A DNA stretch of 64,000 nucleotides. Source: Candidatus Omnitrophota bacterium (GTDB taxonomy: Bacteria > Omnitrophota > Gorgyraeia > Aquiviventales > Aquiviventaceae). Of this stretch, positions 23,124 to 49,541 are shown in pieces (position 1 is the stretch's first letter; every line of letters begins with the position of its first letter). The notes under the pieces are model-generated. The model was given only the letters and a program-made list of their open reading frames with translations. It was not told where the DNA came from and searched no databases. Position numbers and translations under genes: made by a program. The DNA is taken from contig JAHFGV010000005.1 of NCBI GenBank assembly GCA_023247255.1, positions 6,067-70,066 of the forward strand. The letters are read 5' to 3'.

Positions 23124-23366
23124 ATGGCAAAAGTGGTCACGGTACGGCTTTCGGAGGAGGACTATCGAAAGATTGCAGCCGTCGCAAAACGTGAGCGGCG
23201 CCCGCTTTCGAACTTTATGACGCTGATGGTGATCAAGGGCATCGAGGAGGGCGATTACGTCGATGCCGTGGAGATGGATCAGATCCTCGCGGACAAGTCT
23301 CTGAGGGCTAAGTTACGGGCAGGGCACTACGACGCCAAGCGACGCAAAGGCAAGCTCGTTGGCTGA
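23124..23366 (+). CDS. CopG/RHH-family antitoxin
   Basis: 80 aa with an N-terminal ribbon-helix-helix (KVVTVRLSEEDYRKIAAVAKRERRPLSNFM). GGAGG lies upstream. Confidence 0.75.
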   Translation: MAKVVTVRLSEEDYRKIAAVAKRERRPLSNFMTLMVIKGIEEGDYVDAVEMDQILADKSLRAKLRAGHYDAKRRKGKLVG

Positions 23367-23637
23367 TTTTCGTATCTTCGAGACCTCACAGTTTCAGAAG
23401 GACCTTCAGCAGGACTTCCGAGGGCAACAGGCGCGCATTGAACGCAAGCTCGCCACGTATGTCTATCCCCAGCTGCGAGCGAATTCCTACATCGGGAAGA
23501 ATATCAAGAAACTTCGGGATGCCGTTCCTGAGACCTGGCGGTATCGCATCGGGGATTACCGATTTTTCTACAGGGTCGATGAGCGGCAACGACTCATCTT
23601 TATGCTGACTGCCGACCATCGTGGTCACGCGTATTGA
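23359..23637 (+). CDS. RelE/ParE-family toxin
   Basis: 92 aa with WRYRIGDYRFFYRVDERQRLIFMLTADHR. Overlaps the antitoxin gene by 8 nt. Confidence 0.8.
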   Translation: MADFRIFETSQFQKDLQQDFRGQQARIERKLATYVYPQLRANSYIGKNIKKLRDAVPETWRYRIGDYRFFYRVDERQRLIFMLTADHRGHAY

Positions 23638-24101: not shown

Positions 24102-24121
24102 TGCGCAATAGGTCTATTGAA
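24102..24121 (+). repeat. solo copy of the IS right end plus flank
   Basis: TGCGCAATAGGTCTATTGAA is identical to 22179-22198. Confidence 0.6.
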
Positions 24122-24164
24122 GCCCGCGAGAGGGCTGCTCCATTGCGAGTCCTTCTCGTTCTCC

Positions 24165-24193
24165 TTGACGGTTGTGGCGCGTAGGCGTATTCT
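24165..24193 (+). promoter_or_regulatory. sigma70-like promoter candidate for the Crp/Fnr gene
   Basis: TTGACG (24165-24170), 17-nt spacer, TATTCT (24188-24193). This would give a near-leaderless transcript for ATG 24201. Confidence 0.3.
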
Positions 24194-24200
24194 TCATGAG

Positions 24201-24875
24201 ATGGGTGACGAACCAAGAGCCTTCATGGGCCAATTCCTCTCTCGTATGGAGCCTTTCAGACGACTCAGCCAGGCTGAACGGCTACGGCTTGCTGCTGTCG
24301 CCCGTGAGAAACGCTATGACAAAGGCGACACCATCTTCCGCGCAGGTCAGCCAGCCGATGCCGTCTGCGTCGTCAGAGAAGGCCGCGTCCACTTGATGAA
24401 ATTTCTCGAAGGCGGGCAGGCGTCCACGACGTGCGTCATGACGCCCGGGGAAACGTTCTGTTGTCTGCCGGCGCTTGACGGAAAACCGTACCCCGTGGAT
24501 GCCGTCGCTGCAGTGGACTCCACGGTCATTTGCATTCCTACCAGCGCCTTCCATGAGCTCCTGCGCAAGAACCCCGCGTTCCTCCAAGACTCACTCTGCC
24601 TCTTCTGCGATCGGCTGCGCCAGGTCGAGGACAAGAGTTGCATGACCTACGACTCCGTCGAGCGGCGGCTGGCCAAATCACTCCTCATGCTCTCAAAGAA
24701 GTTCGGCCCGACGATTCCGCTGACCAAACAGGAGCTGGCCGAGCTGGCCAATACCACCCAGGAGACCACGATCCGAATTTTAAGCCAACTGAGCAAGCAA
24801 GGGGTGATTCGTTCCGCCCGCGGGAAAACCACGATCCTGCGCCCAGAGAAGCTCTCCGCCTTCCTCGACCCGTAA
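24201..24875 (+). CDS. Crp/Fnr-family transcriptional regulator
   Basis: ATG 24201. cNMP-binding-like barrel (YDKGDTIFRAGQPADAVCVVREGRVHL) plus a C-terminal HTH (LTKQELAELANTTQETTIRILSQL). No N-terminal Cys cluster. Confidence 0.8.
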   Translation: MGDEPRAFMGQFLSRMEPFRRLSQAERLRLAAVAREKRYDKGDTIFRAGQPADAVCVVREGRVHLMKFLEGGQASTTCVMTPGETFCCLPALDGKPYPVDAVAAVDSTVICIPTSAFHELLRKNPAFLQDSLCLFCDRLRQVEDKSCMTYDSVERRLAKSLLMLSKKFGPTIPLTKQELAELANTTQETTIRILSQLSKQGVIRSARGKTTILRPEKLSAFLDP

Positions 24876-25057: not shown

Positions 25058-25107
25058 AGAAGGATTCCCTGTTGAGCGCTACAGTTAGATATGAAAGGAG
25101 GCGCAGG

Positions 25108-25761
25108 ATGAACGCGGTCGAGCGTCTGCGGCGGGATCACACGATCCTCAGAGCCAAGCTGAGCGTCTTGGAAGGGGCGCTGACCATGGGGTCGGAGACA
25201 TGGTTCGTGCTCCGGGAAATTTGCCACGCGCTCTCTCGCCAGCTCCAGGATCACATCAAACGTGAAGAGGAGCTGGTCACGGCGTGCAAAGAAGCACTGC
25301 CCGACGACGTGCTGGCCCATCTCACCGTCGGGCATAAGGACGAGCCTGCGTTGCTGCGGACGATCAACCGGCTGTTTATCGAGGAGCAGGGGCATTCTCT
25401 TGCGAGCATCAGGCCGTCGTTGACGAGGCTCATTCTCGGCCTGCGTGGTCACATGGACGAAGAGGAGGCCGAGTTGTTCCCGGCGATTGAAGGGGTCCTG
25501 AGCGACCATGAAGCAGCGGAGGTTCAAGAGCCGCTTCCGCCTGTCAGGCTGCGCGAGGAGATGACGGTCAACCATGTACTCCATACTTACCCGCAAACCA
25601 AACCACTCCTTGAACGGCTCTTCATCAACGTTCCGTATGAGGGCTACGACTGCCTAGATGAAGTCGCCTGGAGACGGGGAATGGACTGCTGCCAATTCAT
25701 CGGGCTGCTTGAGGAGGCGATCAGCGTGGCGTACCACTGTGATGAGATCGTAGCAGCATGA
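25108..25761 (+). CDS. hemerythrin-domain protein with DUF1858/ScdA-N-like C-terminal domain
   Basis: ATG 25108 follows AAAGGAGG. H/E-rich HHE pattern (RRDH, LQDHIKREEE, HMDEEEAELFP). C-terminus reads MTVNHVLHTYPQTKPLLERLF. Confidence 0.65.
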   Translation: MNAVERLRRDHTILRAKLSVLEGALTMGSETWFVLREICHALSRQLQDHIKREEELVTACKEALPDDVLAHLTVGHKDEPALLRTINRLFIEEQGHSLASIRPSLTRLILGLRGHMDEEEAELFPAIEGVLSDHEAAEVQEPLPPVRLREEMTVNHVLHTYPQTKPLLERLFINVPYEGYDCLDEVAWRRGMDCCQFIGLLEEAISVAYHCDEIVAA

Positions 25762-25848
25762 GCTCGCTTTTGACTTGACGAACCACGAGCTTGTTAATAA
25801 GATGAAACACGCGATGGGTCGACAGGGTGTTGTGAGGAGCCGTCCAGC

Positions 25849-26925
25849 GTGAACCTCCTCGTTGTGGGACTCAGTCATCGCACCGCGCCGCTCGAATTGC
25901 GCGAGCTGCTGGCGATCCCGTCACGCGAGTTGCCCGACACACTCGGCGATCTTCATACCCAGTTCGGGATCGATGAAGCGGTGATCCTGTCGACCTGCAA
26001 TCGGGTTGAGATCTACGTCATCACACCAGACCCCTCCGCAACCTCCTACGGCCTCATCGACTTCTTGAGTCATCGAAGCCACGTGGCCCCCGAGGCGTTC
26101 CAATCCCGGATGTATTGCCTAACGGGACCTGACGCGGTGAGACAGCTCTTTGGCGTCACTGCAGGGCTGGATTCGATGGTCCTTGGGGAGTCAGAAATCA
26201 CGGCCCAAGTGAAACAAGCCTATCGGGTGGCACAAACCGAAGAGACAACCGGGCTTGTGCTCCATCGCCTCTTCCAGAAAGCCTTGCACACGGCAAAGGT
26301 CATTCGATCCAAGACACGCTTAGGCTTTGGCCAAGCCTCCATCGGATCAATCGTTGTCGCGCTTGCCAGGAAACTCTTCGAAGGGCAACTTCAAAATTGC
26401 GAAGTCTTGCTTTGGGGAGCCGGAAAGGCGGCGGAATCGACTGCACGGTATCTCATCAAGAACGGGGTGGGCCAGTTGTGGATTGTCAACCGCACACCGC
26501 TCAAAGCGCGGGATCTTGCGACGCTTTGCCAAAGCGGCTGGCTCTCGTGGGAGCAGGCGTTGAAGCACCTCGCCCACGTCGATATTGCCATCGTCTGCAC
26601 CCAAGCGCCGCACTACGTCATCGATCAAGGCGACCTCGATGCGGTTGCGGCTCAGCGCGGCAGCCGCCCCCTGTGTCTCGTTGACCTGGCGGTGCCTCGC
26701 AACGTCGAGCCGTCCCTCGCGCGGCATCCCGGTGTGCGCCTCTACAACATCGATGATCTCCAAACCATTACGCAGGCTGCACAATCGCAGCGTGAACAGG
26801 AACGCGAACGCTCTGACGCGCTCATTCAGGAGCAGGTCAACCATTTCTCTCGTTGGTGGATGGCAGTTTCCCACAAGAAGGAGGATGTTCCATGCCGATC
26901 CGTCGAGGCCTTCTCGTCGGTGTGA
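25849..26925 (+). CDS. hemA: glutamyl-tRNA reductase (short C-terminus)
   Basis: GTG start. Motifs VVGLSHRTAPLELRE, STCNRVEIY, GESEI and GAGKAAE are present. At 358 aa it is shorter than the ~420 aa I recall as typical. Confidence 0.85.
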   Translation: MNLLVVGLSHRTAPLELRELLAIPSRELPDTLGDLHTQFGIDEAVILSTCNRVEIYVITPDPSATSYGLIDFLSHRSHVAPEAFQSRMYCLTGPDAVRQLFGVTAGLDSMVLGESEITAQVKQAYRVAQTEETTGLVLHRLFQKALHTAKVIRSKTRLGFGQASIGSIVVALARKLFEGQLQNCEVLLWGAGKAAESTARYLIKNGVGQLWIVNRTPLKARDLATLCQSGWLSWEQALKHLAHVDIAIVCTQAPHYVIDQGDLDAVAAQRGSRPLCLVDLAVPRNVEPSLARHPGVRLYNIDDLQTITQAAQSQREQERERSDALIQEQVNHFSRWWMAVSHKKEDVPCRSVEAFSSV

Positions 26926-28118
26926 GTCTCGTCGCGGCGCTTACGCTCGGAGAATCAGCGTGGGCAACGATCGAGAACCTCAAAAGCTACAAGGCAGCCT
27001 ATCCCGATAAAGATCCCAAGGCCTATTCGTGCAAGGCCTGCCACGAGGGCCTCATCGGGAAGAAAGACAACCTCAACGCCTATGGTCTCACCTTGCAGAA
27101 GTTCAAAGTGGATGCCGGGGCGAAGAAATTGACCGAAGAAGATTTTCGGGCGTTCGAGGCTGCGGATGCTGATGGGGATGGCGCCTCCAATCTTGATGAG
27201 CTGGACGCGGGCACTGATCTGAATGATCCCACGTCCGTGCCGGAGGGCGCTGGGCAAACGCCAGAAAAAAAAGAAGAAAGCCCAGGCACTGAGCAGCAGA
27301 CAAGCCCTCCAGGCGGCGCGTCGCAACTGAATCCAGGGACACTGAAACAGTTGCAGGCCTACCTGGAGGAGCAGATCGTCCCAGACGTTCAAGCGGCGCC
27401 AGAGGAATCGTCAGTGTCTAGGCGGCATGACGACAAAACAGCGTCCAACGCCAAATCCTCCCAACCCGAACAGGCTGAGTACGTGGGGATGGAGACCTGC
27501 GCGATGTGTCATAACAAGCAGCACCAGGAATTTCTCCACTCAACCCATGCCAGGATCGCAATCCCCGGAGAGACCAAGGCGCAAGGTTGTGAGACCTGTC
27601 ATGGGCCCGGCAGTCTGCACGTTGCTGCCGGTGGCGGTCGTGGCGTCGGTGGGATTATCAATCCGAAGAAGGATCCCGGCGCCTGTTTTGCCTGTCACCT
27701 CGACAAGAAAGCGGAATTTCGTTTGCCCCATCACCATCCCGTGATGGAAGGCAAGATGAGTTGTGCGGATTGCCACAATCCCCACGGTGAGGATGTGCGG
27801 CCGTGGTCAGCGACGACGCTGAAGGATATCAATGAGGCCTGCTTTCGGTGCCACAAGGAACAGCGCGGCCCATTCGCCTGGGAACACGAGGCGCTGCGGG
27901 AAGGTTGCACGACCTGTCACAAGGTTCATGGCTCGATTCACGAGAAGATGCTGCTCGTCCGGGACAACAACTTGTGCCTGCGCTGCCATACGCAGACGAA
28001 CTTCCCGACCATTGGCAGGTCCAGCCATGCTGGCCGGCTTCCCCAAGGGACGTGCTTTAGCGCGGGATGCCATACGGCGGTTCACGGATCGAACTTCGAC
28101 GATCACCTCCGCTACTAA
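26892..28118 (+). CDS. periplasmic multihaem cytochrome c (MtrA/DmsE-like body)
   Basis: ATG 26892 follows AAGGAGG, then a signal peptide. 8 CXXCH motifs plus CFSAGCH (CX4CH). C-terminal motif CHTAVHGSN. TSP3-like motif DADGDGASNLDELDAGTDLNDP. Confidence 0.8.
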   Translation: MPIRRGLLVGVSLVAALTLGESAWATIENLKSYKAAYPDKDPKAYSCKACHEGLIGKKDNLNAYGLTLQKFKVDAGAKKLTEEDFRAFEAADADGDGASNLDELDAGTDLNDPTSVPEGAGQTPEKKEESPGTEQQTSPPGGASQLNPGTLKQLQAYLEEQIVPDVQAAPEESSVSRRHDDKTASNAKSSQPEQAEYVGMETCAMCHNKQHQEFLHSTHARIAIPGETKAQGCETCHGPGSLHVAAGGGRGVGGIINPKKDPGACFACHLDKKAEFRLPHHHPVMEGKMSCADCHNPHGEDVRPWSATTLKDINEACFRCHKEQRGPFAWEHEALREGCTTCHKVHGSIHEKMLLVRDNNLCLRCHTQTNFPTIGRSSHAGRLPQGTCFSAGCHTAVHGSNFDDHLRY

Positions 28119-28130
28119 AGGAGACGCCTC

Positions 28131-30191
28131 ATGCGCGCGATGCTTTGTTGGACGTTGGGAGGAATTCTGGGTGTGAGTCTATGGTTACCCTCACGCCTTG
28201 CTGAGGCTGCGGACCCGGAGGTTTCCCTTTCCCTGGAGCCCATCCGTTATGCGTTCGTCAATGGCGACCGGGATAAGTTTAGCGCCCATCATTGGATGAA
28301 AGACAACTACGTCGGAGGCGTGAAGGAGTTTTCCTTCGACTACGCCCTTGCGGATGGAACGCAGCTCTCCGCAGAAAGCCACGCGCTCATTGATCAAAAC
28401 GATTTGGGCGCTGACGTCTCACTTAAGAAAGACTCACTGGGCTTTTTCAATCTCGGCTACTCCGAATTCCGCAAGTATTACGATAAAACCGGTGGTGTGT
28501 ACTATCCGTTTACCACCCTTCGCAGCAACGATACGTTTAAGGACCTTGCTCTGGACATCGGTCACCTCAGCCTTGAAAGCGGGTTGACCCTGGAAGGCTG
28601 GCCTGACCTGACCTTCGAGTACGAGCGCGAATTCAAGGATGGGGCGAAATCGCGCCTGAGCTGGGTCCCAACGAAGGAAGGGACCACCACCCGGAATATC
28701 GGTCCCTCGTGGCAAGATCTTGATGAGGTCGTCGACTCATTTGGCCTCAAAGCCGATCATGAGATCGCAGGATTCACTCTCAAGGGCGAGCAGCGATGGG
28801 AGTTCGTGCGGACCGAAACCTTTCGGGAGGAGAAATTTCTCGCGACAACAGGTGTCGCAGCAGACACCAAGATTCGACGGCAGGACCAAGCCCCGCAAGC
28901 CACCTTGATGACGACGACGTTAGGCGGGGAGCGTTCGTTCTTCGCTGACAAGATATTTACATCGATGGGCTACCATTTCGCCCACATGGATAATCGGGAA
29001 TTCGAGACAATCGTCGAGTCGAACGCGGCTGGAACCGTAACAAACTTTTCGAATCCGAAGCAGATCCGTAATGCGCGCGCCGATAACGACTACGATACCC
29101 ATACCTGGGTAGGGAACTTCATGATCAACCCCTGGAACTGGCTGAGCCTCGGGACCAAACTCAAGGCTGAAGCGATTCACCGGGAGAGCGACTCAAGCTA
29201 TCCGGCGGATGCCTCGCCGAACTCCACGGGCGGCAGCACCCCGAATGGGGCGATCGACTCTCTCGTGGCCAGTCTCAACAAGAACAAGGCCGTTCGCTGG
29301 GGGGAAGGAGTGTCCCTGCGGTTTTTTGGCATCCCACGCACCGCTCTCTACACTGATTTGGAGTTGGAGCAATCGCGAGTAATCTTGGCAGAGGATCGGA
29401 AAGATTTAGTGACGATCCCGAATGTCAACGAGGATTTCAGCCGCTACACTGTCACCAACGTCCGACGAGGGACGTGGACATTGGGCGGCCATGTCGCGCC
29501 GGGGTCGTTCCTCGATCTGACGACGCAGGTCCGGCGACGTGTCAACAACAACGACTACGATGACCAACGGGAAACCGTCGCCTCAGGGACGGCGCTGTCC
29601 GCATTCGTCGATATGCAGAACATCCATACGGATGAGTTCACCACGCGGGCCACGCTGCGGCCCTCTCGGTGGTTTCGCCCCTCGTTCCGGTACCAGTTCC
29701 GTAACGATAAATATGCGACTCGGACGGAAGCGCAGGATACCGTAAAGACGGGTATGCTCTCGAACATCTACACTTTTGACGTAACGGCACAACCGTTGCG
29801 AGACCTCACGACCACCGCCTCCTTCTCGCGTCAGACGGCCGTCACCACCACTCCCGCGGGTTCGGCGTCGTCAGCAAACGTTCCTGGGTTTCGCGCAAAT
29901 GTCAACACGTGGCTTTTCAGCACCGACTACAGCCCAAGGGCGAATGTGAGTATCACCAACGCGCTGCTCTATTCGCGCGCAAGAAACTTCAACGATTTTA
30001 CCGCCAGCGGGATGCCGTTCGGGACCTCGTTTGATCGGCTGGATGTGACCACAGGTCTGAAGTGGGCGCTGACCGAGGATACGTCTGTTGGCACCGAATA
30101 CGCATTCTACTCGTATCTGCCCAATTCGCTGACCGAAGTGGGCGACTACCATGCCCACGTCATCTGGCTCGAGTTGTCGAAGCAGTTTTGA
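28131..30191 (+). CDS. outer-membrane beta-barrel protein (MtrB/PioB-like porin candidate)
   Basis: 686 aa with a signal peptide (..SRLAEA/AD) and alternating aromatic/Gly-rich strands. The C-terminal ..WLELSKQF ends in Phe. Begins 13 nt after the cytochrome gene. Confidence 0.6.
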   Translation: MRAMLCWTLGGILGVSLWLPSRLAEAADPEVSLSLEPIRYAFVNGDRDKFSAHHWMKDNYVGGVKEFSFDYALADGTQLSAESHALIDQNDLGADVSLKKDSLGFFNLGYSEFRKYYDKTGGVYYPFTTLRSNDTFKDLALDIGHLSLESGLTLEGWPDLTFEYEREFKDGAKSRLSWVPTKEGTTTRNIGPSWQDLDEVVDSFGLKADHEIAGFTLKGEQRWEFVRTETFREEKFLATTGVAADTKIRRQDQAPQATLMTTTLGGERSFFADKIFTSMGYHFAHMDNREFETIVESNAAGTVTNFSNPKQIRNARADNDYDTHTWVGNFMINPWNWLSLGTKLKAEAIHRESDSSYPADASPNSTGGSTPNGAIDSLVASLNKNKAVRWGEGVSLRFFGIPRTALYTDLELEQSRVILAEDRKDLVTIPNVNEDFSRYTVTNVRRGTWTLGGHVAPGSFLDLTTQVRRRVNNNDYDDQRETVASGTALSAFVDMQNIHTDEFTTRATLRPSRWFRPSFRYQFRNDKYATRTEAQDTVKTGMLSNIYTFDVTAQPLRDLTTTASFSRQTAVTTTPAGSASSANVPGFRANVNTWLFSTDYSPRANVSITNALLYSRARNFNDFTASGMPFGTSFDRLDVTTGLKWALTEDTSVGTEYAFYSYLPNSLTEVGDYHAHVIWLELSKQF

Positions 30192-30634
30192 TGTGTCCTC
30201 GTCAGCCCCTCAGTCGCCGGGTTTTCCTGGCGCTTTGCCTCAGGGGTGGTGGGCTTGCCCTGCTTGGGGCTGCGCTCTATCCCATCCTGCGGTATCTCTA
30301 TCCTCCCCGAGGCGTTGAATCCTCCGTCTCCAGCGTTGCGGCGGCGAAGGTGGGGGATCTGGCGACGAATACCGCGAAGATCTTCCGGTTCGGCAGTCGG
30401 CCCGGCCTCCTCATTCGTTCCCCCCAAGGCGAGCTCAAAGCCTTCTCGGCGGTGTGCACCCACCTCAACTGCACCGTTCAGTACGACAGCGACGCGAGCA
30501 TCATCTGGTGCGCCTGCCACAACGGCAAGTATGACTTAAACGGACAGGTCATCTCCGGCCCTCCCCCACGACCACTCGATGCCTACCAGGTGAACGTCCG
30601 CGGAGAAGACATCATCGTCTCCAAGACGTCCTAG
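30191..30634 (+). CDS. Rieske [2Fe-2S] protein
   Basis: ATG 30191 overlaps the porin stop (TGATG). RR-containing N-terminus plus a TM helix. Cluster motifs CTHLNC and CACHNG. Confidence 0.85.
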   Translation: MCPRQPLSRRVFLALCLRGGGLALLGAALYPILRYLYPPRGVESSVSSVAAAKVGDLATNTAKIFRFGSRPGLLIRSPQGELKAFSAVCTHLNCTVQYDSDASIIWCACHNGKYDLNGQVISGPPPRPLDAYQVNVRGEDIIVSKTS

Positions 30635-30638
30635 CCTG

Positions 30639-31709
30639 ATGGGGTACTTCGAGCACCTACGCGCATTCTTGCATGAGCGCTACCGGCTGGGTGGCCTAGT
30701 GGATCTCGCCACGCATAAGACGGTCCCCATCCACCGCCACAGCGTCTGGTACTACTGGGGCGGCATGACGCTCGTGCTCATCGGCATCCAGATCATCAGC
30801 GGTGTGCTGCTGTTGCTGTACTACCGCCCATCAGCCCAGGAAGCCTTCGAGTCGGTTCGCTTCCTCATGACGCGGGTGCAATTCGGGTGGCTGGTGCGCT
30901 CCGTGCACGCGTGGGCGGCGAACCTGGCGATCTTCTGCGCGATGGTGCATCTGGCCAGCGTCTTTTTCCTGAAGGCGTATCGGCCACCCCGTGAACTGAC
31001 CTGGGTGACCGGGGTTGTGTTGTTGTTTCTGCTATTTGGTTTCGGATTTACCGGCTACCTCCTGCCGTGGAATACGCTGGCGTTTTTCGCCACCAAGGTC
31101 GGCACGGAAATCGCGGGGATTGTGCCCGTCGTCGGGCCTGTCGTTCAAATCTTTCTGCGCGGTGGAAGCGACGTTGGGGATGTGACGATCACGCGGTTCT
31201 TTTGGCTTCATGTCGCAATCCTGCCAATCGGCCTGATGACACTCTTAAGCCTTCATCTGCTCATGATCCAGCTCCAGGGCATGAGCAAACCGCCTTGGGT
31301 TAAGAGCAATCGGTCCATGCCGTTCTTTCCGAATTTTTTCCTGCGCGATCTGGTTGCCTGGTCACTCATACTGGGGATAGTGCTGTGTGTGAGCGTGCAC
31401 TGGCCCGCGACGCTCGGCGAAAAGGCCGATCCGTTCGCTCCGACACCCGTGGGCATCCAACCGGAATGGTATTTTCTCTGGATGTTTCAGACGCTCAAGA
31501 TTTTCCCTGGCCACCTGTTTGGTCTCGAGGGTGAGTTAGTCGCGGTGGGATTGACCGGACTGGCGGGTCTTGCGCTGCTACTCGTTCCATGGCTGGATCG
31601 CCCCGCCCGACGGGAGCAATCATCCTGGCTGGTATGGGCTGTTGGCGTGTTGGGCATTGCCTATGTCGTCGGGATGACCGGCTACGCGCTATGGGTGAAA
31701 CCTCACTGA
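30639..31709 (+). CDS. cytochrome b (b6 plus subunit-IV-like, fused)
   Basis: 356 aa with WYYWGGMTL, VRSVHAWAANL and GYLLPWN, plus the paired His context. Confidence 0.9.
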   Translation: MGYFEHLRAFLHERYRLGGLVDLATHKTVPIHRHSVWYYWGGMTLVLIGIQIISGVLLLLYYRPSAQEAFESVRFLMTRVQFGWLVRSVHAWAANLAIFCAMVHLASVFFLKAYRPPRELTWVTGVVLLFLLFGFGFTGYLLPWNTLAFFATKVGTEIAGIVPVVGPVVQIFLRGGSDVGDVTITRFFWLHVAILPIGLMTLLSLHLLMIQLQGMSKPPWVKSNRSMPFFPNFFLRDLVAWSLILGIVLCVSVHWPATLGEKADPFAPTPVGIQPEWYFLWMFQTLKIFPGHLFGLEGELVAVGLTGLAGLALLLVPWLDRPARREQSSWLVWAVGVLGIAYVVGMTGYALWVKPH

Positions 31710-32995
31710 TGACAGGGTATCGTCTACGGGTGGCACTCGGACTTCTGCTGTGCCCTGGCTTTGTGTGGTCGGCTGAGAAGCCGAATAGTTGTGTCGAGTG
31801 CCACAAGCAGGTGGAGGGCCAAACGCGAGGGCCGGCCACACTGGCTGCAGAGGACGTGCATTTCCAGCGAGGCTTGTCCTGCGTGGATTGCCATGGCGGC
31901 GATCCAACAGCGATGGATCCTCAAGCCGCGATGGACCCGGCTAAAGGGTTCCTCGGTCGCCCGAGGCGGGAGCAGATTCCCCAGTTTTGCGCCCGGTGCC
32001 ACGCGGATCCGGCCACCATGCGCAAGTACAATCCCAATCTTCCGACTGACCAATACGCGAAGTACCTGACCAGTCAGCACGGGAAGCGCTTCAGTGTTGG
32101 CGATGCCGATGTGCCGGTCTGCATCAGTTGCCACGAGGCGCACGGCATCCGCTCGAAAAAAGACCCAGCCTCGCCGGTCTACCCGACGAACATCCCCGGA
32201 ACCTGCGCGAGCTGCCACAGCGACGCGTCGATCATGGACAAACACGGCTTGCCGGTGAACCAGCACTGGGACTACTCGCAGAGCGTCCACGGCCAGGCGC
32301 TGTTGTTCCGTGGCGATCGTGCGGCTCCCCATTGCGCGAGCTGCCACGGATCGCACGAAGCGGCCAAACCTAGGACGGTCGCAATCGGCAACGTCTGCGC
32401 TCAGTGCCATAGCCTCACGCGCGATCTGTTTGCAAAGAGTCCCCACAAGGCCGCGCATGAAGCCTTAGGGCTTCCGGAGTGCGAGGTCTGCCACGGCAAT
32501 CACCTGATCCGCAAGCCAAGCGACGAGATGCTTGGGACGGGACAAGATGCGGTGTGTGTCAGTTGTCACGAGCCAGGGTCGACCGGCTACGTCACCGCGC
32601 AGCAGATGCGCAGCGCCATCGAGCAACTGAAAACCCACATGGCCAGCGCTGAGGCAGCCGTCAGGCACGCAGCGGAGTTGGGCATGGATGTCGGTGACGC
32701 GGAATTTGAGCTTCGCGAGGCGATGACCCAACTCACGCAAGAGCGCACCTACGTCCACTCTTTCTCCGCCGCAACCATGGAACCCATTGCCGAGGAGGGA
32801 ACTCACCACGCCCTGCGGGCCGAGGGGCAAGCCCGCCAGGCGATCCGTGAGTTTCATTTCCGCCGTCAGGGCTTGTGGGTCACCCTGATCATTCTCGCCC
32901 TCGTGGTTTCTGGACTCCTTCTGAAGATTCGAGACTTGGAGCGATCGGACTCGACAGACAAGATGGACGACACATCCCCTCGCGACTCCTCGTAA
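31709..32995 (+). CDS. nonahaem cytochrome c with C-terminal membrane anchor
   Basis: ATG 31709 overlaps the cyt b stop (TGATG). Signal peptide, 9 CXXCH motifs, a helical region and a C-terminal TM (LWVTLIILALVVSGLLL). Confidence 0.8.
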   Translation: MTGYRLRVALGLLLCPGFVWSAEKPNSCVECHKQVEGQTRGPATLAAEDVHFQRGLSCVDCHGGDPTAMDPQAAMDPAKGFLGRPRREQIPQFCARCHADPATMRKYNPNLPTDQYAKYLTSQHGKRFSVGDADVPVCISCHEAHGIRSKKDPASPVYPTNIPGTCASCHSDASIMDKHGLPVNQHWDYSQSVHGQALLFRGDRAAPHCASCHGSHEAAKPRTVAIGNVCAQCHSLTRDLFAKSPHKAAHEALGLPECEVCHGNHLIRKPSDEMLGTGQDAVCVSCHEPGSTGYVTAQQMRSAIEQLKTHMASAEAAVRHAAELGMDVGDAEFELREAMTQLTQERTYVHSFSAATMEPIAEEGTHHALRAEGQARQAIREFHFRRQGLWVTLIILALVVSGLLLKIRDLERSDSTDKMDDTSPRDSS

Positions 32996-33032: not shown

Positions 33033-34550
33033 ATGAACCACACATCGATGCCAAAACCCCCCAGCCTCTTGCGCAACCCGCTGAGCTTTTTCGGCCTCGC
33101 CGTCGCCATCACGAGCACGGCGTTTGGCCTGCCCATGATGTTCGTCGACATGTTCAGTCGACGCACGCATCCGTATCTTGCTGTGCTCGTTTATCTCGTG
33201 CTGCCGTTCGTTGCAGCAGGCGGCGTCGGCTTAGTCCTGCTTGGAGCATTGTGGGAACGCCGTCGAAGACGCCGACGGCCTGGCATGGTAGTGCCACCCC
33301 TGCCATCCATCGATCTCAATCGAAGCGCCCACCAGATTGCTGTGGCTGGAGCACTCACAACGTTCATGACTATTGTGGCCATGCTCTCCGTGACCGGCTA
33401 CCGGGCGTACCACTTTACGGAGTCGGTCAAATTCTGCGGCCTGGTCTGTCACCAGGTGATGAAACCGGAGTATACGGCGTATCAGTATTCTCCGCATGCG
33501 CGCGTGGCCTGCACCCAGTGCCATGTCGGGCCTGGTGCAAGCTGGTTCGTGCGCTCAAAGATCACAGGAGCGTATCAGGTTTACGCGGTTACATTCAACA
33601 AGTACCCGCGCCCGATTCCCACACCCGTGAAGAGCCTGCGTCCGGCGCAAGAAACTTGCGAGCAATGCCACTGGCCGGCGAAGTTTTTTGGCGCGCAGCA
33701 GAAAACCTTCACGCACTACATGGCGGATGAGCACAACAGCCCGTGGCAGATTCAGATGCTGCTGAAAATCGGCGGCGGCGATCCGTCGGTTGGCGCTCCT
33801 GCGGGCATTCACTGGCACATGAACATCAAGAACGATATTTATTACATTGCCTCAGATGAGCAGCGGGAAACCATTCCGTGGGTGCGCGTGGTCGAGCCGC
33901 AGGGACGCATCGCCGAATATATGTCGATGGAAAGTCCGCTCTCGCCGGAGCAGATCGTAAAGAGCGAAGTGCGCCGCATGGACTGCGTGGATTGCCACAA
34001 CCGGCCCTCCCACATCTTTCGACCGCCGGATCGTGCGGTGGAGGAGGCCTTCGAGACCGGCCGGCTAGAGCGGTCCCTGCCGTATCTGAAGCGCGAAGCC
34101 ATAAGGTTGTTGGCGCAAGAGTACCCCTCGGAGGAGCAGGCGTTATCAGCCATCCTGAAAGGCTTGGCCGAGTTCTACCAGAAGGACTATCCAGAGGTGT
34201 ATCGCGAACAGGCAGTCGCTATTCAACAGGCCACAGCTGAGTTGCAACGCATCTATTCGAGGAATTTCTTTCCCGAGATGCGCGCCGATTGGCGCGCCCA
34301 TCCCAACCACATGGGCCATCTAAATGCCGAAGGCTGCTTCCGCTGCCACGATGGGCTGCACAAAAACCGCGAGGGCAAGGTGCTAACCAAAGACTGTACC
34401 GCCTGTCACACGATCTTGGCCCAGGGGCCACCTGAGGAGGTGGCGCAAGCCAAGCTTGAAGCGCAGCCGTTTCGCCACCCGGTCGACGTGGGGATGGACG
34501 TGACGGAATTTAAGTGCAGCCAGTGTCATACCGGCACGAGCGGTCTCTAG
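33033..34550 (+). CDS. membrane-anchored multihaem cytochrome (NapC/NirT-related, ImcH-like architecture)
   Basis: 505 aa with N-terminal TM helices. CGLVCH (CX3CH) followed by 6 CXXCH motifs. Confidence 0.7.
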   Translation: MNHTSMPKPPSLLRNPLSFFGLAVAITSTAFGLPMMFVDMFSRRTHPYLAVLVYLVLPFVAAGGVGLVLLGALWERRRRRRRPGMVVPPLPSIDLNRSAHQIAVAGALTTFMTIVAMLSVTGYRAYHFTESVKFCGLVCHQVMKPEYTAYQYSPHARVACTQCHVGPGASWFVRSKITGAYQVYAVTFNKYPRPIPTPVKSLRPAQETCEQCHWPAKFFGAQQKTFTHYMADEHNSPWQIQMLLKIGGGDPSVGAPAGIHWHMNIKNDIYYIASDEQRETIPWVRVVEPQGRIAEYMSMESPLSPEQIVKSEVRRMDCVDCHNRPSHIFRPPDRAVEEAFETGRLERSLPYLKREAIRLLAQEYPSEEQALSAILKGLAEFYQKDYPEVYREQAVAIQQATAELQRIYSRNFFPEMRADWRAHPNHMGHLNAEGCFRCHDGLHKNREGKVLTKDCTACHTILAQGPPEEVAQAKLEAQPFRHPVDVGMDVTEFKCSQCHTGTSGL

Positions 34551-34627: not shown

Positions 34628-36183
34628 ATGGGGGAGGCTCTGACGAGAAACGGCGGACGGATACGGCGCGTAGCGCTCTGCGCGCTCTTCACGTGCTGGA
34701 CCTGGGCGCCGCGGGCCATGGGAGAGGGCAGCGTCTCTCCAGCCGCGCAAGAGATCGACAACGCTGCCTGTCTGGCTTGCCATGGTGATCCCTCGGCAAT
34801 CCGCTTTGTGGACCACGCGAAGTTCGAGGCTTCCGTCCATGGGAGTTTTTCCTGCACTACCTGCCACGCGGATGTCGTCACCATTCCCCATGACGTGCCG
34901 CTGGAGTCGATCAGTCAGTCGCAGATCCCCCTCACGTGCGGCCAGTGCCATGAAGACATCAAGGCTGCCTACCAGCGGAGTATCCACGCTCAGGCGGTCG
35001 CCGCCGGCAAGCGCCATGCGCCCGTCTGCACCGACTGCCATGGTGAGCACTATGTGGCCCCGGTGAAAACGGAGGCGTCGAAAGTGTTTCCCTCGCACAT
35101 CCCGCAGACGTGCGCACAGTGCCACGCGGCGGAGCGCATCGTTACGAAGTATCGGTTGCCGGCGTACGTGGTCGATACGTACATGAGCAGCTTCCACGGC
35201 CTCATACACCAACTGGGATCCGTGACGGCCGCGAACTGCGCCTCCTGCCACGGGGCGCATGACATTCTCCCCGCGAACGACGAGCGTTCCTCGGTCAATC
35301 CGAAGAACCTGCCGAAAACCTGTGGCTCCTGCCATCCGGGCGTCGGCGCGTTCGTCGCACAGGGAAAGATTCACTCCGGCACACAGCCCGGAGCGGAACA
35401 TCCTGCGGTGACATTCGTTCGCCGGTTCTACCTCATCCTCATCGGTTTGGTCATTGGGGGCATGCTGATTCACAACGGTCTCGATTTCCGCAAAAAACTC
35501 TCGATCCATTACCAACGGATGGCCGCCAGCAGCGCGGTACAACGGATGAGTCTTAATGAGCGCCTTCAACATGGCGTGCTCTTGATCGCCTTTGCGACGC
35601 TCGCCTATACCGGATTTGCGTTAAAGTTCCCGCATGTCTGGTGGGCACGCCCCTTCATGGGCCGCGTCGACTGGCGCCGCCTGGGGCATCGGGGAGCGGC
35701 GGTCGTCTTCTGCCTGCTCGCCGGCTACCACCTCTGGTTCATGACGTGCACGAAACGGGGGCGGAGCGAGTTGCGCGCCTTGCGACCCGAACGAGCCGAC
35801 TTCACGCACCTGAGACGGATGCTCGGCTTCTATCTGGGTAGGAGCCGGGAGCAGCCGCGCGCGGCGCGGTACAGCTACGTGGAGAAAGCGGAGTATTGGG
35901 CGCGGTCTGGGGTTCAGTCATCATGGTGCTCACCGGCGGTCTGATGACCTGGCAGAATTGGACATTGCGCTTCCTGCCCAAGTGGGCGTTCGATGTTTTT
36001 ATCACGGTGCATTTTTATGAAGCACTCCTCGCATGCTTGGCGATCCTTATTTGGCACCTCTACTTCGTCATGTACGATCCCGATGAATACCCGATGAAGT
36101 GGACGTGGATCAGCGGCAAGGCCTCACCCACCGACGAGGCACATCGGCATCCAGGCGACGCCGAGGAAGGCAATCCAGGCTGA
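34628..36183 (+). pseudogene. CbcL-like fusion of a heptahaem cytochrome c to an FdnI/HydC-type cytochrome b membrane domain, frameshifted
   Basis: Signal peptide, 7 CXXCH motifs, then TM helices. The reading frame breaks near 35899-35905 (..KAEYWA / VWGSVIMVLTG..). The track shows two ORFs, 34628..35944 and 35896..36183. Confidence 0.65.
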
Positions 36184-36269: not shown

Positions 36270-38051
36270 ATGACACCCTTCGTCCGATTCCTTGGATCGC
36301 TGAGCATCGCGGTGCCGCTGCTGATCGTGATTGCCCTGGTGCTCGCATGGGGCACCATCTATGAAACCCGCTTTGGCACGGCGGCGGTTCAGCGCTTTGT
36401 CTACCACGCGTGGTGGTTTCAAGCGCTCCTCGGCTTTCTGGCGATCAACCTCGCCGTGGCTGCGCTCGAGCGCTATCCGTGGCAGCGTCGACACCTGCCG
36501 TTTGTCCTGGCCCACATCGGCATCATCCTCATCCTGATTGGGGGGATTATCGGAGCCCGATTCGGCATCGAGGGTCAGATGATCATTCCGGAAGCTCAGG
36601 CCGAGCGCGTCCTCGAGCAGCCAGGCAATGTCCTTGTAGTGCGCCAGCCAAACCCGGGTCTATCTATCATCATCCCCACGCAGTTTGAAACGCAGGCCTG
36701 GGTGCATGAGCCGAACGCGACCTTTCCCGTGACTCTCGATGGCCGGACGATTGCGCTCACCGTCGACCGCTACTATCCCGACGCGGTGACGGATGAAGAA
36801 ATCACAAGCGGTGGCGCTGAGGACAATCCGGCTCTCCACATGCTGCTTACGCACAACGAGCAGCAGGATGCGGTGTGGCTCATGAGCAGGGACTCTGAGC
36901 GTTTTGGTATGGGCTGGGGTGAGGCGCACGTGCTCTTCCTTGAACCAAGAACTGCTTCTGAAGTCGATCGGCTTACTGGGGCTGGGCGCTCACCTGGCGT
37001 CGCGTCTGCGCGAGGCGTGATCGTTATCCGCCTACCCGGGATGCATGCGCCACGCGAGATTCCGGTTCCCGATGAGCGCAACCGATCCGTCGACGTCACA
37101 GGCACGCCCTATCAGATCATCTTCAAGGATTACTTTCCCGATTTTGCGATTACCGAACAGGGGATCGTGAGCCGCTCGCTTGAGGCCAATAACCCTGCGG
37201 TTTCTTTCATCATCACCGGACCCGAGGGAACCGATGCGTATTTGCTGTTTGCGCTCCATCCCGATTTTCAAACGATCCATGGCTTCGAACATAAGATCGA
37301 CGCCCAGGTGAGTTATACCCACACCGCCAGCGCTGCGCTGCCTCCCAATTGTATCGGGCTCATCCGTGCACCATCAGGAACCTTAATCGGTATCTTGACC
37401 GGCAGCGGGACCGATCGATCCGTGATCAATCCGCTGGAACTTGGCAAACGGTACACCCACCCTTCGCTCGGCTATCAGTTTGAAGTCGCCACGTACTATC
37501 CCCGTGCGGTTCTCACGCAGCACGTCACCAACCGAGGAGATGAAATCAAAGCCGAAACGCTTCATCTCGTGGGACGTGAAGGTGATCAGAGCGCAGAGGC
37601 GTGGTTGGGTTTGCGCGGCTCGGCAGAATTCGCGTTGGGAAAGGAGCCGGTTACGATTGAGTACCGACCGGCCCGATGGGAGCTGCCGTTTACCATCAAG
37701 CTCTTGGACTTTCGCAAGATCGACTATCCAGGAACGCAGATGGCCTCGGCGTTTGAAAGCGACGTGGAGCTCACCGATTCTCAGCGGGGTGTCATCCTGA
37801 TGCGCAAGATTACGATGAACAACCCCCTGCGCTACCGCGGGTTTAGCGTGTACCAATCCAGCTACATCGAAGGCCCGACGGAAACCACAGTGCTCTCGGT
37901 GCGCAATGATCCAGGAACCCCATTTGTTTATGCGGGGTTCATCATTGTGATCGCCGGCGTCGTCAGTATGTTTGTGCTCGGCACCCCCTCCACGACCGCA
38001 ACCCCTCCGCCTTCGATCCGGCGAGTACGCAGAAGGAGCCGCTCTTCATGA
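36270..38051 (+). CDS. ccsB: cytochrome c biogenesis protein CcsB/ResB (System II)
   Basis: 593 aa with the ResB-like N-terminus (SIAVPLLIVIALVLAWGTIYE), a large periplasmic domain and a C-terminal TM. Confidence 0.85.
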   Translation: MTPFVRFLGSLSIAVPLLIVIALVLAWGTIYETRFGTAAVQRFVYHAWWFQALLGFLAINLAVAALERYPWQRRHLPFVLAHIGIILILIGGIIGARFGIEGQMIIPEAQAERVLEQPGNVLVVRQPNPGLSIIIPTQFETQAWVHEPNATFPVTLDGRTIALTVDRYYPDAVTDEEITSGGAEDNPALHMLLTHNEQQDAVWLMSRDSERFGMGWGEAHVLFLEPRTASEVDRLTGAGRSPGVASARGVIVIRLPGMHAPREIPVPDERNRSVDVTGTPYQIIFKDYFPDFAITEQGIVSRSLEANNPAVSFIITGPEGTDAYLLFALHPDFQTIHGFEHKIDAQVSYTHTASAALPPNCIGLIRAPSGTLIGILTGSGTDRSVINPLELGKRYTHPSLGYQFEVATYYPRAVLTQHVTNRGDEIKAETLHLVGREGDQSAEAWLGLRGSAEFALGKEPVTIEYRPARWELPFTIKLLDFRKIDYPGTQMASAFESDVELTDSQRGVILMRKITMNNPLRYRGFSVYQSSYIEGPTETTVLSVRNDPGTPFVYAGFIIVIAGVVSMFVLGTPSTTATPPPSIRRVRRRSRSS

Positions 38052-39709
38052 AACGCGCCTTTATGACGATTATGACGATGGCGTTATTGTTCGGAGCCTT
38101 GGCGAGATTTATGAGCGTATTCGCAGATCAGCCCGTTGCCCTGCCGCGCGAGGCGCTCGAGACCATACGTCGCATGGCCATCCAACACAATGGACGCAAC
38201 AAACCCTTCGACAGCTTTGCGCGAGAAACCCTCCGACTCATCACCGGCTCAGCGCGCGTGGGAAATGAAGATCCTGTCGAAACCATCTTGACCCTCATGG
38301 CCAGTCCCGACCATGGGCAGCAGTTGCTGCTTGTGTCGGTTCCATTTATCCCTCTGCGAAAGGCTCTGGGCATGGATCCCAAGGCGACGCAGGTGTCCTA
38401 CAACGATTTGGTTGCGACACGCAAGCTCATGCGGCTGCTGCCCCCGATTGTCCAAAAGCAGCAGCGCGAAGAGAAACTTTCGATGCTGGAAGAAGAGACG
38501 ATGGATGTCTTCCAGCGATTTGCCACCCTGAGCACTCTGCTCGAGCAAAAGCTCAACCTCGTGCCTCCACCTGTTGGATCTGCAGAGCGTGTGTGGCAGC
38601 TTGTTGAGGAGCCGTCGGGCTATGCGCCAGCGCAGCAAGAGACCATTCGTACCGCATGGTCCGGGCTGATCGGTGCGGTGCAAGCTGGGCGGGGCGATGC
38701 GGTGATTACCTCAGCGCGTCATGCGGCAGATGCGCTGCGAGATCTGAGCCCTTCTCGCTATCCTCCTCGGTGGCGATTAGCGTTCGAGGTGTTCTACAAC
38801 CACGTCGCGCCATTTCGAATCGCCCAAGGGTTCTATCTGCTCTCAGCGATCCTGTTGTTTCTGAGCCTTGGCGCATTGAAGAAATTCCGGCCAGCGCTTT
38901 TGGGATTTGTCGCTTGCTGCTTCGCGTTTCTCGCGCATGGATCAGGTATCCTGATGCGCGTTGTTCTGGGTGAGCGTCCGCCGGTCTCGAATTTTTTTGA
39001 GACCACGCTGTGGCTGCCGTTCGTCGCAGTCGCCATTGCGCTCATCCTGGAACGTGTGTACCGGACTCGTTACATCGCCCTGGCTGCGGCGATCCTTGCG
39101 ACAATCACCCTGGTTCTCGCGGATCATCTGCCGCTGGACTCGAGCATCTCTCCGGTGGTCGCCGTGCTCCACAGCAATCTCTGGTTGACGATTCACGTGT
39201 TGACCATCGTGGCGAGCTACGGCGCGCTGACCCTGGCGATTGTGCTGGCGCACATGTATGGGGGGATGTACCTGAGTCGCCGCACGAGCGGCTCAACGTT
39301 AGATGCGTTGGGGACATTTCTCTATCGCGTCATCCAAGTCGGCGTCGTGTTATTGGCGGCGGGGATCATGCTGGGCGCCGTGTGGGCCAACGCCTCTTGG
39401 GGCCGTTACTGGGGCTGGGATCCGAAAGAGACCTGGGCGTTGATTACCCTCATCTGGTTCCTGGCGCTGCTGCACGGACGCTTCGCCGGATGGATCAGCG
39501 GTGTTGGCGTAGCCCTGTGCACCGTCGGCGGATTTTTTCTGCTGCTGATGACCTACTACGGTGTCAGCTTCTATCTCGTCGGTCTGCACAGCTATGCCGG
39601 TGCTCATGCCAAGCCCTTGCCCCCAGTTCTCATCGCCTACCTCATCGCTGAACTGGCGTTCATCATCGTGGTGAGCGTCTCAGCCATACTCCGCAGGCGG
39701 CCAGCGTAG
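38048..39709 (+). CDS. ccsA: cytochrome c biogenesis protein CcsA/ResC with N-terminal extension
   Basis: The ATG overlaps the ccsB stop (ATGA). W-rich motif WGRYWGWDPKETWALITLIW. About 240 extra N-terminal residues. Confidence 0.85.
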   Translation: MKRAFMTIMTMALLFGALARFMSVFADQPVALPREALETIRRMAIQHNGRNKPFDSFARETLRLITGSARVGNEDPVETILTLMASPDHGQQLLLVSVPFIPLRKALGMDPKATQVSYNDLVATRKLMRLLPPIVQKQQREEKLSMLEEETMDVFQRFATLSTLLEQKLNLVPPPVGSAERVWQLVEEPSGYAPAQQETIRTAWSGLIGAVQAGRGDAVITSARHAADALRDLSPSRYPPRWRLAFEVFYNHVAPFRIAQGFYLLSAILLFLSLGALKKFRPALLGFVACCFAFLAHGSGILMRVVLGERPPVSNFFETTLWLPFVAVAIALILERVYRTRYIALAAAILATITLVLADHLPLDSSISPVVAVLHSNLWLTIHVLTIVASYGALTLAIVLAHMYGGMYLSRRTSGSTLDALGTFLYRVIQVGVVLLAAGIMLGAVWANASWGRYWGWDPKETWALITLIWFLALLHGRFAGWISGVGVALCTVGGFFLLLMTYYGVSFYLVGLHSYAGAHAKPLPPVLIAYLIAELAFIIVVSVSAILRRRPA

Positions 39710-40157: not shown

Positions 40158-40213
40158 GACTCATGAAACAGACGTGAGCACTGCCACTAACCTCGATGCA
40201 TTTTGTAAAACCC
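40158..40213 (+). repeat. 55-nt satellite copy of the 2645-2699 element end
   Basis: GACTCATGAAACAGACGTGAGCACTGCCACTAACC is identical in both copies. CGATGCATTTTG..AAAACCC follows with 2 differences. Confidence 0.8.
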
Positions 40214-42250: not shown

Positions 42251-42323
42251 TTCCACCACCTGTGTGTTGGCCGCAGGCCGGGCGCTGGCGTGGCACGCGG
42301 CCCCCTCGATGGAGCCAGCGACC

Positions 42324-42344
42324 GGTTTCGCCTTCGGCGAAACC
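42324..42344 (+). terminator. stem-loop after feoB (weak terminator candidate)
   Basis: GGTTTCGCC-TTC-GGCGAAACC, a perfect 9-bp stem. No clear U-tract. Confidence 0.3.
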
Positions 42345-42359
42345 ATATAGTGTGGTAGG

Positions 42360-45365: not shown

Positions 45366-45367
45366 CC

Positions 45368-49521: not shown

Positions 49522-49541
49522 CGAGATGAGGCGTGTGAGCG

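Follow-up and report, generated by a model that had tools for sequence, protein, structure and literature searches.

The window analyzed here, i.e., the whole stretch of DNA under study, comprises 64,000 nucleotides (nt) of Candidatus Omnitrophota bacterium, an uncultured groundwater bacterium (GTDB lineage Bacteria; Omnitrophota; Gorgyraeia; Aquiviventales; Aquiviventaceae), and corresponds to forward-strand positions 6,067-70,066 of contig JAHFGV010000005.1 in assembly GCA_023247255.1. Another assembly contains a 100% identical copy of the region. Nitrospirota or NC10 as the host was considered and rejected, as the genome matches are almost all to metagenome-assembled genomes of Omnitrophota. 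We focused on five same-strand genes at positions 26892-32995, which an earlier note had described as an outer membrane porin-cytochrome conduit packed together with a Rieske/cytochrome b complex:

26892..28118, + strand: cytA, multihaem cytochrome (MtrA homology, motif map)
28131..30191, + strand: outer membrane beta-barrel, putative MtrB-like sheath for cytA (fold model and gene context)
30191..30634, + strand: Rieske [2Fe-2S] subunit (PF00355, E 1.5e-13)
30639..31709, + strand: cytochrome b with fused b6-like and subunit IV-like parts (PF00033, E 2.7e-48; PF00032)
31709..32995, + strand: cytC, anchored nonahaem c-type cytochrome (nine CXXCH motifs, C-terminal transmembrane helix)

The open reading frames, their junctions and the haem counts agree with the earlier description of five tightly packed genes. 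The proteins of the window were searched with Pfam and NCBIfam hidden Markov models, with TIGR and NF models judged against their curated cutoffs. In the five genes, Pfam supports PF00355, PF00033, PF00032 and multihaem domains, so that the Rieske, cytochrome b and multihaem identities first proposed all hold. The cytA and barrel genes are separated by 12 nt, with an AGGAG ahead of the barrel start (the close junction had been noted correctly, its length as 13 nt). The barrel stop and the Rieske ATG overlap in TGATG, a 4-nt gap follows between the Rieske stop and the cytochrome b start, and the cytochrome b stop again overlaps the cytC ATG in TGATG. These stop/start overlaps suggest translational coupling. 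They do not demonstrate a supercomplex or the "single wire" that had been proposed, which was an overstatement.

The real unit is larger than the five genes, which form its core. From hemA (25849) to ccsA (39709), all genes lie on one strand, with junctions that overlap or leave gaps of at most 86 nt, in the order hemA, conduit, Rieske/cytochrome b/nonahaem, ImcH-like, CbcL-like (frameshifted), ResB and CcsA. We therefore read the locus as an island of about ten genes and ~14 kb, which brings ImcH-like, CbcL-like and haem/cytochrome maturation genes into a unit that had been drawn too narrowly. Besides the core, it contains:

25849..26925, + strand: hemA, glutamyl-tRNA reductase, 358 aa (GlutR_N and Shikimate_DH)
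33033..34550, + strand: ImcH-like NapC/NirT-family multihaem cytochrome (PF03264 and NrfH TIGR03153 matches)
34628..36183, + strand: CbcL/MtoC-like gene, frameshifted (multihaem domains, Ni_hydr_CYTB and FdnI similarity)
36270..38051, + strand: ResB, system II cytochrome c maturation (PF05140, E 9.5e-31)
38048..39709, + strand: CcsA-type cytochrome c assembly protein, overlapping the resB stop (PF01578, E 1e-30)

The 3' end of hemA overlaps the cytA start by 34 nt, and a promoter-like site (25775-25803) precedes hemA. Promoter and terminator scans, compared with shuffled sequence, stayed at shuffle level and were uninformative; for intrinsic terminators, 13 were observed and 13.8 expected. The packing is thus operon-like, because junctions are overlapping or short and there is no excess of terminators. 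Related loci (L numbers below) were mapped by tblastn with the window's proteins over loci of the barrel family, one genome per species. In 11 other loci, hemA likewise lies immediately upstream of cytA. The hemA product is short, with the N-terminal and NADP-binding domains only and no match to the dimerization domain.

The MtrAB-type nature of the first two genes is supported by cytA, by the barrel fold and by the constant adjacency of the two genes. The cytA protein of 408 aa has a signal peptide, eight CXXCH motifs and one CX4CH motif. Homology to MtrA (6R2Q chain A) was detected in its C-terminal ~210 residues, with E 4.2e-32 for the match over residues 197-402. The earlier assignment to an MtrA/DmsE-like cytochrome is thereby borne out through MtrA, as the score on the DmsE decahaem family model TIGR03508 (E 1.9e-47, 161.9 bits) is below its cutoff of 192.2. 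Ten CXXCH motifs are not present in cytA: seven CXXCH and one CX4CH make eight haem motifs in the MtrA-like core, and the remaining CXXCH belongs to a one-haem module at the N-terminus (residues ~26-120), which also contains a motif rich in Asp that resembles calcium-binding sites (DADGDG...DELD). A linker rich in Q, E, S and P (~119-196, about 75 residues) joins this module to the eight-haem core. By analogy with MtoD, the module might act as a tethered or free periplasmic shuttle.

Two further observations concern the one-haem module. It has no His or Met outside its CXXCH (window positions 26967-27250), so that the module offers no evident candidate for the distal haem ligand, and it also occurs as a separate small gene just past hemA (L010 8761-9105, L012 8481-8771, L016 6397-6687).

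The barrel protein (686 aa) has a signal peptide with the cleavage site AEA/A and a C-terminal KQF, i.e., it ends in Phe. Its structural model, built with an alignment of 47 sequences, is all-beta with ~28 strands and no plug (pLDDT 90, pTM 0.79). When the model was compared to the PDB by Foldseek, MtrB (6r2q_B) ranked first (E 4.7e-13, TM-scores 0.63/0.67), followed by TonB-dependent receptors at TM-scores of ~0.4. Sequence searches did not find this relationship. The barrel had no Pfam or NCBIfam match and none to PF11854 (MtrB/PioB) at E<=1; only 1 of the 47 family members matched PF11854 (P0089, E 3.5e-7), and a profile of the family had no match among PDB sequences, MtrB included. The barrel assignment hence rests on fold and gene context. 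Of the earlier proposal of an MtrB/PioB-class barrel, the plug-less, MtrB-like fold stands and membership by PF11854 does not. The module would work like MtrAB or MtoAB, but since neither the MtrB/PioB nor the DmsE sequence model accepts it, we regard it as an Mtr-like conduit whose barrel belongs to a distinct family without annotation. This family has 143 close homologues, all unnamed, and 892 cluster representatives (50% identity) at E<=0.001.

Among distant relatives of the barrel, a group of ~800-900 aa (P0326, P0329, P0337, P0347, P0353, P0357, P0370, P0382, P0385) has a monohaem "Planctomycete cytochrome C" (PSCyt1) domain joined to the N-terminal side of the barrel; these proteins form a large-barrel class of fused cytochrome-porins.

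The three genes that follow encode an intact Rieske/cytochrome b complex with what we read as a membrane-anchored multihaem c subunit. Residue conservation was judged over 12 orthologues. The Rieske protein has a twin-arginine translocation (Tat) motif (SRRVFL), one N-terminal transmembrane anchor and the ligand boxes CTHLNC (89-94) and CACH (107-110) with the disulfide cysteines; the pattern CTHLxC...CxCH is invariant in all orthologues. Cytochrome b is a single fused polypeptide of 356 aa, in which the haem-b histidines H90, H104, H191 and H206 and the PEWY motif (P275-E-W-Y278) are likewise invariant, across two divergent lineages. Because ligands, haem-b histidines and PEWY do not vary, Rieske and cytochrome b are under selection as a working complex. 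In the third protein, cytC, a signal peptide is combined with a ~90-aa region rich in helices, nine CXXCH motifs and a transmembrane helix at residues 389-407; this topology (signal peptide, periplasmic domain, C-terminal anchor) is also that of cytochromes c1 and f. In the mapped loci its gene always adjoins Rieske/cytochrome b. Moreover, P0494 (L041 3612-5837) is one polypeptide of 741 aa in which cytochrome b is fused to a cytC-like cytochrome with nine haems; its gene follows those for ResB, CcsA and Rieske, and no conduit lies upstream on L041, a 7-kb contig. The c1/f-like topology, the constant adjacency and this natural fusion together support cytC as the c-type subunit of the complex. 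The Rieske/cytochrome b/nine-haem complex of the earlier note is thus upheld by its conserved residues and by the fusion. cytC has 11 free histidines, enough for bis-His ligation of all nine haems.

Two closer classifications of the complex were tried and rejected. It is not a b6f complex proper, as cytochrome b is fused rather than split, the c subunit is nonahaem and the haem-ci Cys is absent; the position that we take to be equivalent to this Cys in b6 reads YYWGG. Orthology with Geobacter ExtOPQ was also rejected, since cytochrome b scores 210.1 bits on the ExtP model NF040969 (cutoff 290) and 19.6 bits on the ExtQ model NF040970 (cutoff 150).

Two further candidate routes to the quinone pool follow in the island. 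Published hallmarks of ImcH are three transmembrane helices, an atypical CX3CH motif in addition to CXXCH motifs, and NapC/NirT similarity near the last helix (PMC6295460). The 505-aa cytochrome fits this description and appears ImcH-like by sequence: it has transmembrane-like segments at residues 20-38, 51-69 and 102-120, one CX3CH (CGLVCH at 135), six CXXCH, and PF03264/NrfH matches over residues 105-214. Homologue names were not informative, as the 8000 matches listed were either unnamed or "NapC/NirT family". The CbcL-like gene encodes an N-terminal seven-haem domain (seven CXXCH) and a putative C-terminal b-type membrane domain (PF01292, 27.3 bits, under the cutoff of 30.1; FdnI similarity). 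It is split into two overlapping reading frames by a 1-nt shift near 35893-35900, where the window reads gcgcggtctgg, one base short; the orthologue at L007 16307-18454 is uninterrupted. This apparent single-base deletion may be an error of the assembly; otherwise, the gene has recently become a pseudogene.

In data with one genome per species, 36 loci carry the barrel family; nearly all of them bear the label Omnitrophota, and most come from groundwater. Wherever the genome loci were informative, cytA lies directly upstream of the barrel gene (35/35), and the same holds for L002 and L040. Rieske/cytochrome b genes are near the conduit in approximately 12 of 31 informative loci, in several arrangements. 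Six other species-level genomes (L004, L006, L007, L008, L010, L012) have the same tight order, with Rieske, cytochrome b and cytC at most 250 nt past the barrel, and L007 shares the barrel-Rieske stop/start overlap of this window. The three genes follow a 6.7-kb insert in L005 and L016; the order is barrel, cytC, Rieske and cytochrome b in L027, L030 and L037; and Rieske/cytochrome b precede the conduit in L039. On the metagenome contig L040, the order is cytA, barrel, small cytochrome, ResB, CcsA, Rieske, cytochrome b, cytC, ImcH-like and CbcL-like. The linked Rieske/cytochrome b genes belong to at least two divergent lineages (CACHNGK-type versus CPCHAGL-type, ~40-48% identity). The commonest partner, ahead of Rieske/cytochrome b, is the ImcH-like gene, which adjoins the conduit in approximately 20 loci.

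The linkage is conserved and recurrent. The five-gene arrangement is more than chance, because six further genomes at species level share its tight order and Rieske/cytochrome b are near the conduit in ~12 of 31 loci. Recurrence in several orders and lineages argues for a functional connection, although the partnership is facultative and not the dominant one.

Three loci have further genes within or beside the cluster. The insert in L016 (12286-18237), like the barrel-Rieske gap in L005, contains a Band 7/SPFH protein and a module resembling Qrc/ACIII, with a cytochrome c3/c7-like multihaem protein, a molybdopterin-like subunit with a Tat signal, a 4Fe-4S protein and NrfD. By its sequence, this module is a putative fourth kind of quinone-pool gateway inside the island. 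In L002 (4313-12431), which has no linked Rieske/cytochrome b, genes for a P-type ATPase, for multicopper-oxidase-like and CarboxypepD_reg-like proteins and for an Aq_1264-like membrane protein precede the conduit on the same strand, and pyruvate:ferredoxin oxidoreductase (PFOR) and fumarase genes lie downstream; this context may hint at metal oxidation.

The wider window supplies further respiratory genes. Complex I subunits and an F-type ATP synthase are encoded upstream. The ATP synthase/transporter region is separated from the island's regulator by a DDE transposase (21135-22136) and by a toxin-antitoxin pair of the ribbon-helix-helix/ParE type (23124-23637), which may mark an insertion boundary. 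Directly past the cytochrome maturation genes, the ferrous iron transporter FeoB and a DtxR-type repressor with a fused FeoA domain are encoded (40196-43254), followed at 43767-52801 by the gene set of a periplasmic type II DMSO-reductase-family enzyme (NAR/NXR/Ebd-like) and then by genes for molybdenum cofactor biosynthesis. These flanking genes are:

24117..24875, + strand: Crp/FNR-family transcription regulator (cNMP_binding and HTH_Crp_2; start probably internal, gene caller: 216 aa)
25072..25761, + strand: hemerythrin-like di-iron protein (PF01814 in the L001 gene call; weak RIC/ScdA match)
43767-45365: dihaem cytochrome c fused to an EB_dh haem-b domain
45197-48820: Mo subunit of ~1150 aa with a Tat signal
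48814-49521: DUF2490 protein between alpha and beta
49819-51057: Fe-S beta subunit
51088-51867: NarJ/TorD-type chaperone
within 43767-52801, past the chaperone: 315-aa protein of no assigned family

The Crp/FNR-family regulator is kept upstream of the conduit in L007, L008, L010 and L034, and the hemerythrin-like gene in L007 and L008.

The closest parallels are the MtrAB, MtoAB and PioAB systems of Shewanella, Sideroxydans and Rhodopseudomonas (6R2Q). As in these, a multihaem cytochrome gene lies just upstream of the gene for a barrel of ~26-28 strands, cytA is homologous to MtrA and the best solved match of the barrel is MtrB; the island, like MtoAB and PioAB, lacks a gene for an extracellular cytochrome. 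Unlike the known barrels, this one is missed by PF11854 and by the profile-to-PDB search. Unlike MtrA, cytA has a core of eight rather than ten haem motifs and an additional one-haem N-terminal module on a long linker, and the whole module is found in Omnitrophota and is followed by a Rieske/cytochrome b complex.

For the combination with a Rieske/cytochrome b complex, the nearest case is Geobacter sulfurreducens, in which extHIJKL and extMNOPQS (CbcMNOPQR; GSU2940-2930) form one conserved cluster for a porin-like protein, periplasmic and multihaem cytochromes, the Rieske protein ExtO and the b6-like ExtP/ExtQ (PMC5877670, PMC6148476). There, too, a porin-like conduit is joined to Rieske/cytochrome b, and cytochrome b of the window reaches 210 bits on the ExtP model. 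However, ExtI is a smaller porin-like protein (45 kDa, ~21 strands) without analogy to the barrels of Mtr or Pcc, a pentahaem selenoprotein and a rhodanese lipoprotein are parts of the Ext conduit, and ExtP and ExtQ are split whereas cytochrome b of the window is fused, with scores under the equivalog cutoffs, so that these are not orthologues. The role of the Geobacter Ext bc-type (Cbc) complex is likewise still open (PMC13591261).

Mto, PCC3/PCC4 and Mtr clusters commonly carry a quinone-active partner of the inner membrane, such as CymA/ImoA, MtoC/MtrH, Cytbc or a b-type protein (PMC5566968, PMC6295460). They resemble the island in combining an outer membrane conduit with a quinone-pool enzyme, and the island also has a CbcL/MtoC-like gene, but here a full Rieske/cytochrome b complex and a cytochrome of the ImcH-like kind are among the partners. 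In Geobacter, ImcH and CbcL are quinol oxidases for high- and mid-potential acceptors, respectively (PMC13591261, PMC6295460). The ImcH-like and CbcL-like genes of the island recall these potential-tiered oxidases (ImcH, CbcL, CbcBA), with several gateways for different acceptor potentials; the Geobacter genes are not clustered with a conduit, and the likeness here is one of described features. A 2018 survey found no mtrAB or mtoAB adjoining imcH (PMC6295460). For Omnitrophota, a phylum-wide study listed "metal-reducing cytochromes" in 10 of 23 Omnitrophia species and read respiratory members as organotrophs (PMC10066038). Only coarse mentions of this kind were found in the literature on the phylum, and none of the arrangement described here. 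Nor did we find a description of an MtrAB-fold conduit directly coupled to a full Rieske/cytochrome b complex, or of a conduit adjoining an ImcH-like gene. The earlier claim that a characterized precedent was lacking was nevertheless too strong in view of Geobacter extHIJKLMNOPQS and the Mto and PCC3/4 clusters.

More distant parallels concern organization rather than parts. In the rus/petI system of Acidithiobacillus ferrooxidans, electron entry at the outer membrane is organized together with inner-membrane complexes, and Fe(II) oxidation involves uphill operation of a bc complex. In anammox bacteria, multihaem c subunits replace c1 or f in Rieske/cytochrome b complexes. The island resembles these systems in the joint organization of entry point and respiratory complexes and in the multihaem c subunit. 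Acidithiobacillus Cyc2 is a small fused monohaem porin with the bc1 genes in a separate operon, and the anammox complexes have no link to a conduit.

Taken together, gene content, catalytic residues, barrel fold, MtrA homology, conserved synteny and the cytochrome b-cytC fusion lead us to propose that the island builds a route for extracellular electron transfer. Outward respiratory flow is its most likely use, a reading to which we give about an even chance; sequence cannot settle the direction, and both direction and the physical link between the two membranes are inferred. Electrons would pass from NADH through complex I to menaquinol, then through one of the gateways to the periplasm, and from there through cytA and the barrel to the final acceptor, which may be Fe(III), Mn(IV), humic matter or a partner cell. 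Three alternative gateways (Rieske/cytochrome b/nonahaem, ImcH-like and CbcL-like) are encoded side by side and would connect the conduit to the quinone pool. Together, the Tat-dependent Rieske protein, fused cytochrome b and anchored nonahaem cytochrome would be a quinol:multihaem-cytochrome oxidoreductase with the capacity for a Q cycle. This bc-type complex would add proton translocation at high acceptor potential; at lower potentials, the ImcH-like and CbcL-like modules would take over, in line with what has been proposed for Geobacter. To help bridge the periplasm, cytC would contribute its nonahaem ectodomain and cytA its N-terminal haem module on the linker. At the outer membrane, homology and fold suggest that cytA is threaded through the barrel as MtrA is in MtrB. 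The haem chain would in principle be reversible. Outward flow is favored because ImcH and CbcL have quinol-oxidase roles, forward quinol oxidation is the usual mode of Rieske/cytochrome b complexes, complex I and ATP synthase are encoded in the window, and metal-reducing cytochromes have been flagged in Omnitrophia.

Several observations weigh against this proposal. The island has no gene for an extracellular lipoprotein cytochrome of the MtrC or OmcB type, which is the pattern of Fe(II)-oxidizing MtoAB/PioAB clusters, and its CbcL-like gene is frameshifted in the window. The clusters of L005 and L016 contain a Qrc-like module, and the Qrc module of Desulfovibrio reduces quinone, i.e., works in the inward direction. 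Only about one third of the related conduits are linked to Rieske/cytochrome b, and approximately eight loci have no inner-membrane partner in the available sequence. Bis-His ligation usually means low potential, and bis-His haems in cytC, as its histidine content suggests, would have potentials below that of the Rieske centre, which is awkward for forward flow. Co-transcription and physical contact, finally, are inferred only.

Flow in the inward direction is accordingly a possible, though doubtful, alternative. Extracellular Fe(II), Mn(II), a mineral or a partner cell would supply the electrons that enter through the conduit. Most of them would flow downhill into a reductase, periplasmic or terminal, such as the NXR/NAR-like molybdoenzyme encoded 10 kb downstream, and Rieske/cytochrome b would be run in reverse by the proton motive force, reducing quinone for NAD(P)H. 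Such reverse operation of a bc1 complex has been proposed for the petI complex of Acidithiobacillus ferrooxidans. We know of no Fe- or Mn-oxidizing Omnitrophota, which counts against this direction, as does the lack of carbon-fixation genes or a terminal oxidase visible within the window. Further evidence is divided. The island resembles MtoAB/PioAB in having no extracellular cytochrome gene (PMC4245776), and CbcL/MtoC homologues are present in Fe(II) oxidizers (PMC6295460), but the 2018 survey found ImcH homologues only in Fe(III) reducers (PMC6295460) and published genomics takes respiratory Omnitrophota as organotrophs (PMC10066038). Gene neighborhoods rather fit inward flow: the type II DMSO-reductase-family enzyme with its dihaem-c/EB_dh subunit, FeoB and the DtxR-like regulator are just downstream, the Crp-family regulator and the hemerythrin/RIC-like protein upstream hint at control by O2 or NO, the L002 conduit is directly preceded by a multicopper-oxidase-like gene and a P-type ATPase and followed by PFOR and fumarase, and a quinone-reducing Qrc-like module lies inside the L016 cluster. 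In a more ambitious reading of the island, which is not tied to inward flow and which we consider unlikely, the Q-cycle complex would contact the MtrAB-type conduit directly through the stalked cytC and the tethered haem module of cytA, forming a hard-wired trans-envelope assembly. Extracellular electron transfer would then be coupled to proton translocation, and the assembly run in reverse would drive lithotrophic oxidation of Fe(II) or Mn(II).

It is also improbable, to a similar degree, that haem-rich genes have simply clustered around hemA and resB/ccsA and form no dedicated path, with Rieske/cytochrome b/nonahaem mainly feeding periplasmic reductases (nitrate, nitrite, others) and the ImcH-like protein serving the conduit. 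Such clustering would account for the more frequent association of the conduit with the ImcH-like gene (~20 loci versus ~12 for Rieske/cytochrome b), the fluid gene order with ResB/CcsA or Qrc-like inserts between conduit and Rieske, the ResB-CcsA-Rieske-cytochrome b/cytC series without an upstream conduit on the short contig L041, and the conservation of hemA, resB and ccsA as parts of the island. However, neutral clustering does not predict a link that is seen again in two or more divergent Rieske/cytochrome b lineages and in at least three gene orders. The stop/start overlap that joins barrel to Rieske in the window and in L007 also speaks against it. Least of all do we expect the 686-aa barrel to be a substrate porin or another outer membrane protein merely situated beside cytochrome genes. 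Its lack of Pfam and NCBIfam matches, the single family member of 47 that touches PF11854 and the empty profile search against PDB sequences would be compatible with this view; yet the pairing with the gene of an MtrA-homologous cytochrome is invariant, there is no plug domain, and relatives of ~800 aa have a c-type cytochrome domain fused to the same barrel.

The functional idea of the earlier note is thus reasonable but unproven, in a gene context that is richer, and with a novelty that is less categorical, than it had suggested. The findings extend Mtr-type outer membrane conduits to the uncultured phylum Omnitrophota. Since the barrel family with its 892 representatives is not seen by the current Pfam MtrB/PioB model, marker surveys that use this model are likely to miss it. 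With ImcH-like, CbcL-like and Rieske/cytochrome b genes beside one conduit, the island is a compact natural system for gateway choice, and it allows a natural test of whether electrons can pass, in either direction, between a Q-cycle complex and extracellular electron transfer, a question that is open for the Geobacter Cbc complexes as well. If the hard-wired assembly existed and ran in reverse, it would mean lithotrophic Fe(II)/Mn(II) oxidation, a lifestyle not known for Omnitrophota. More generally, the island leads to a testable hypothesis on how respiratory Omnitrophota of groundwater obtain their energy.

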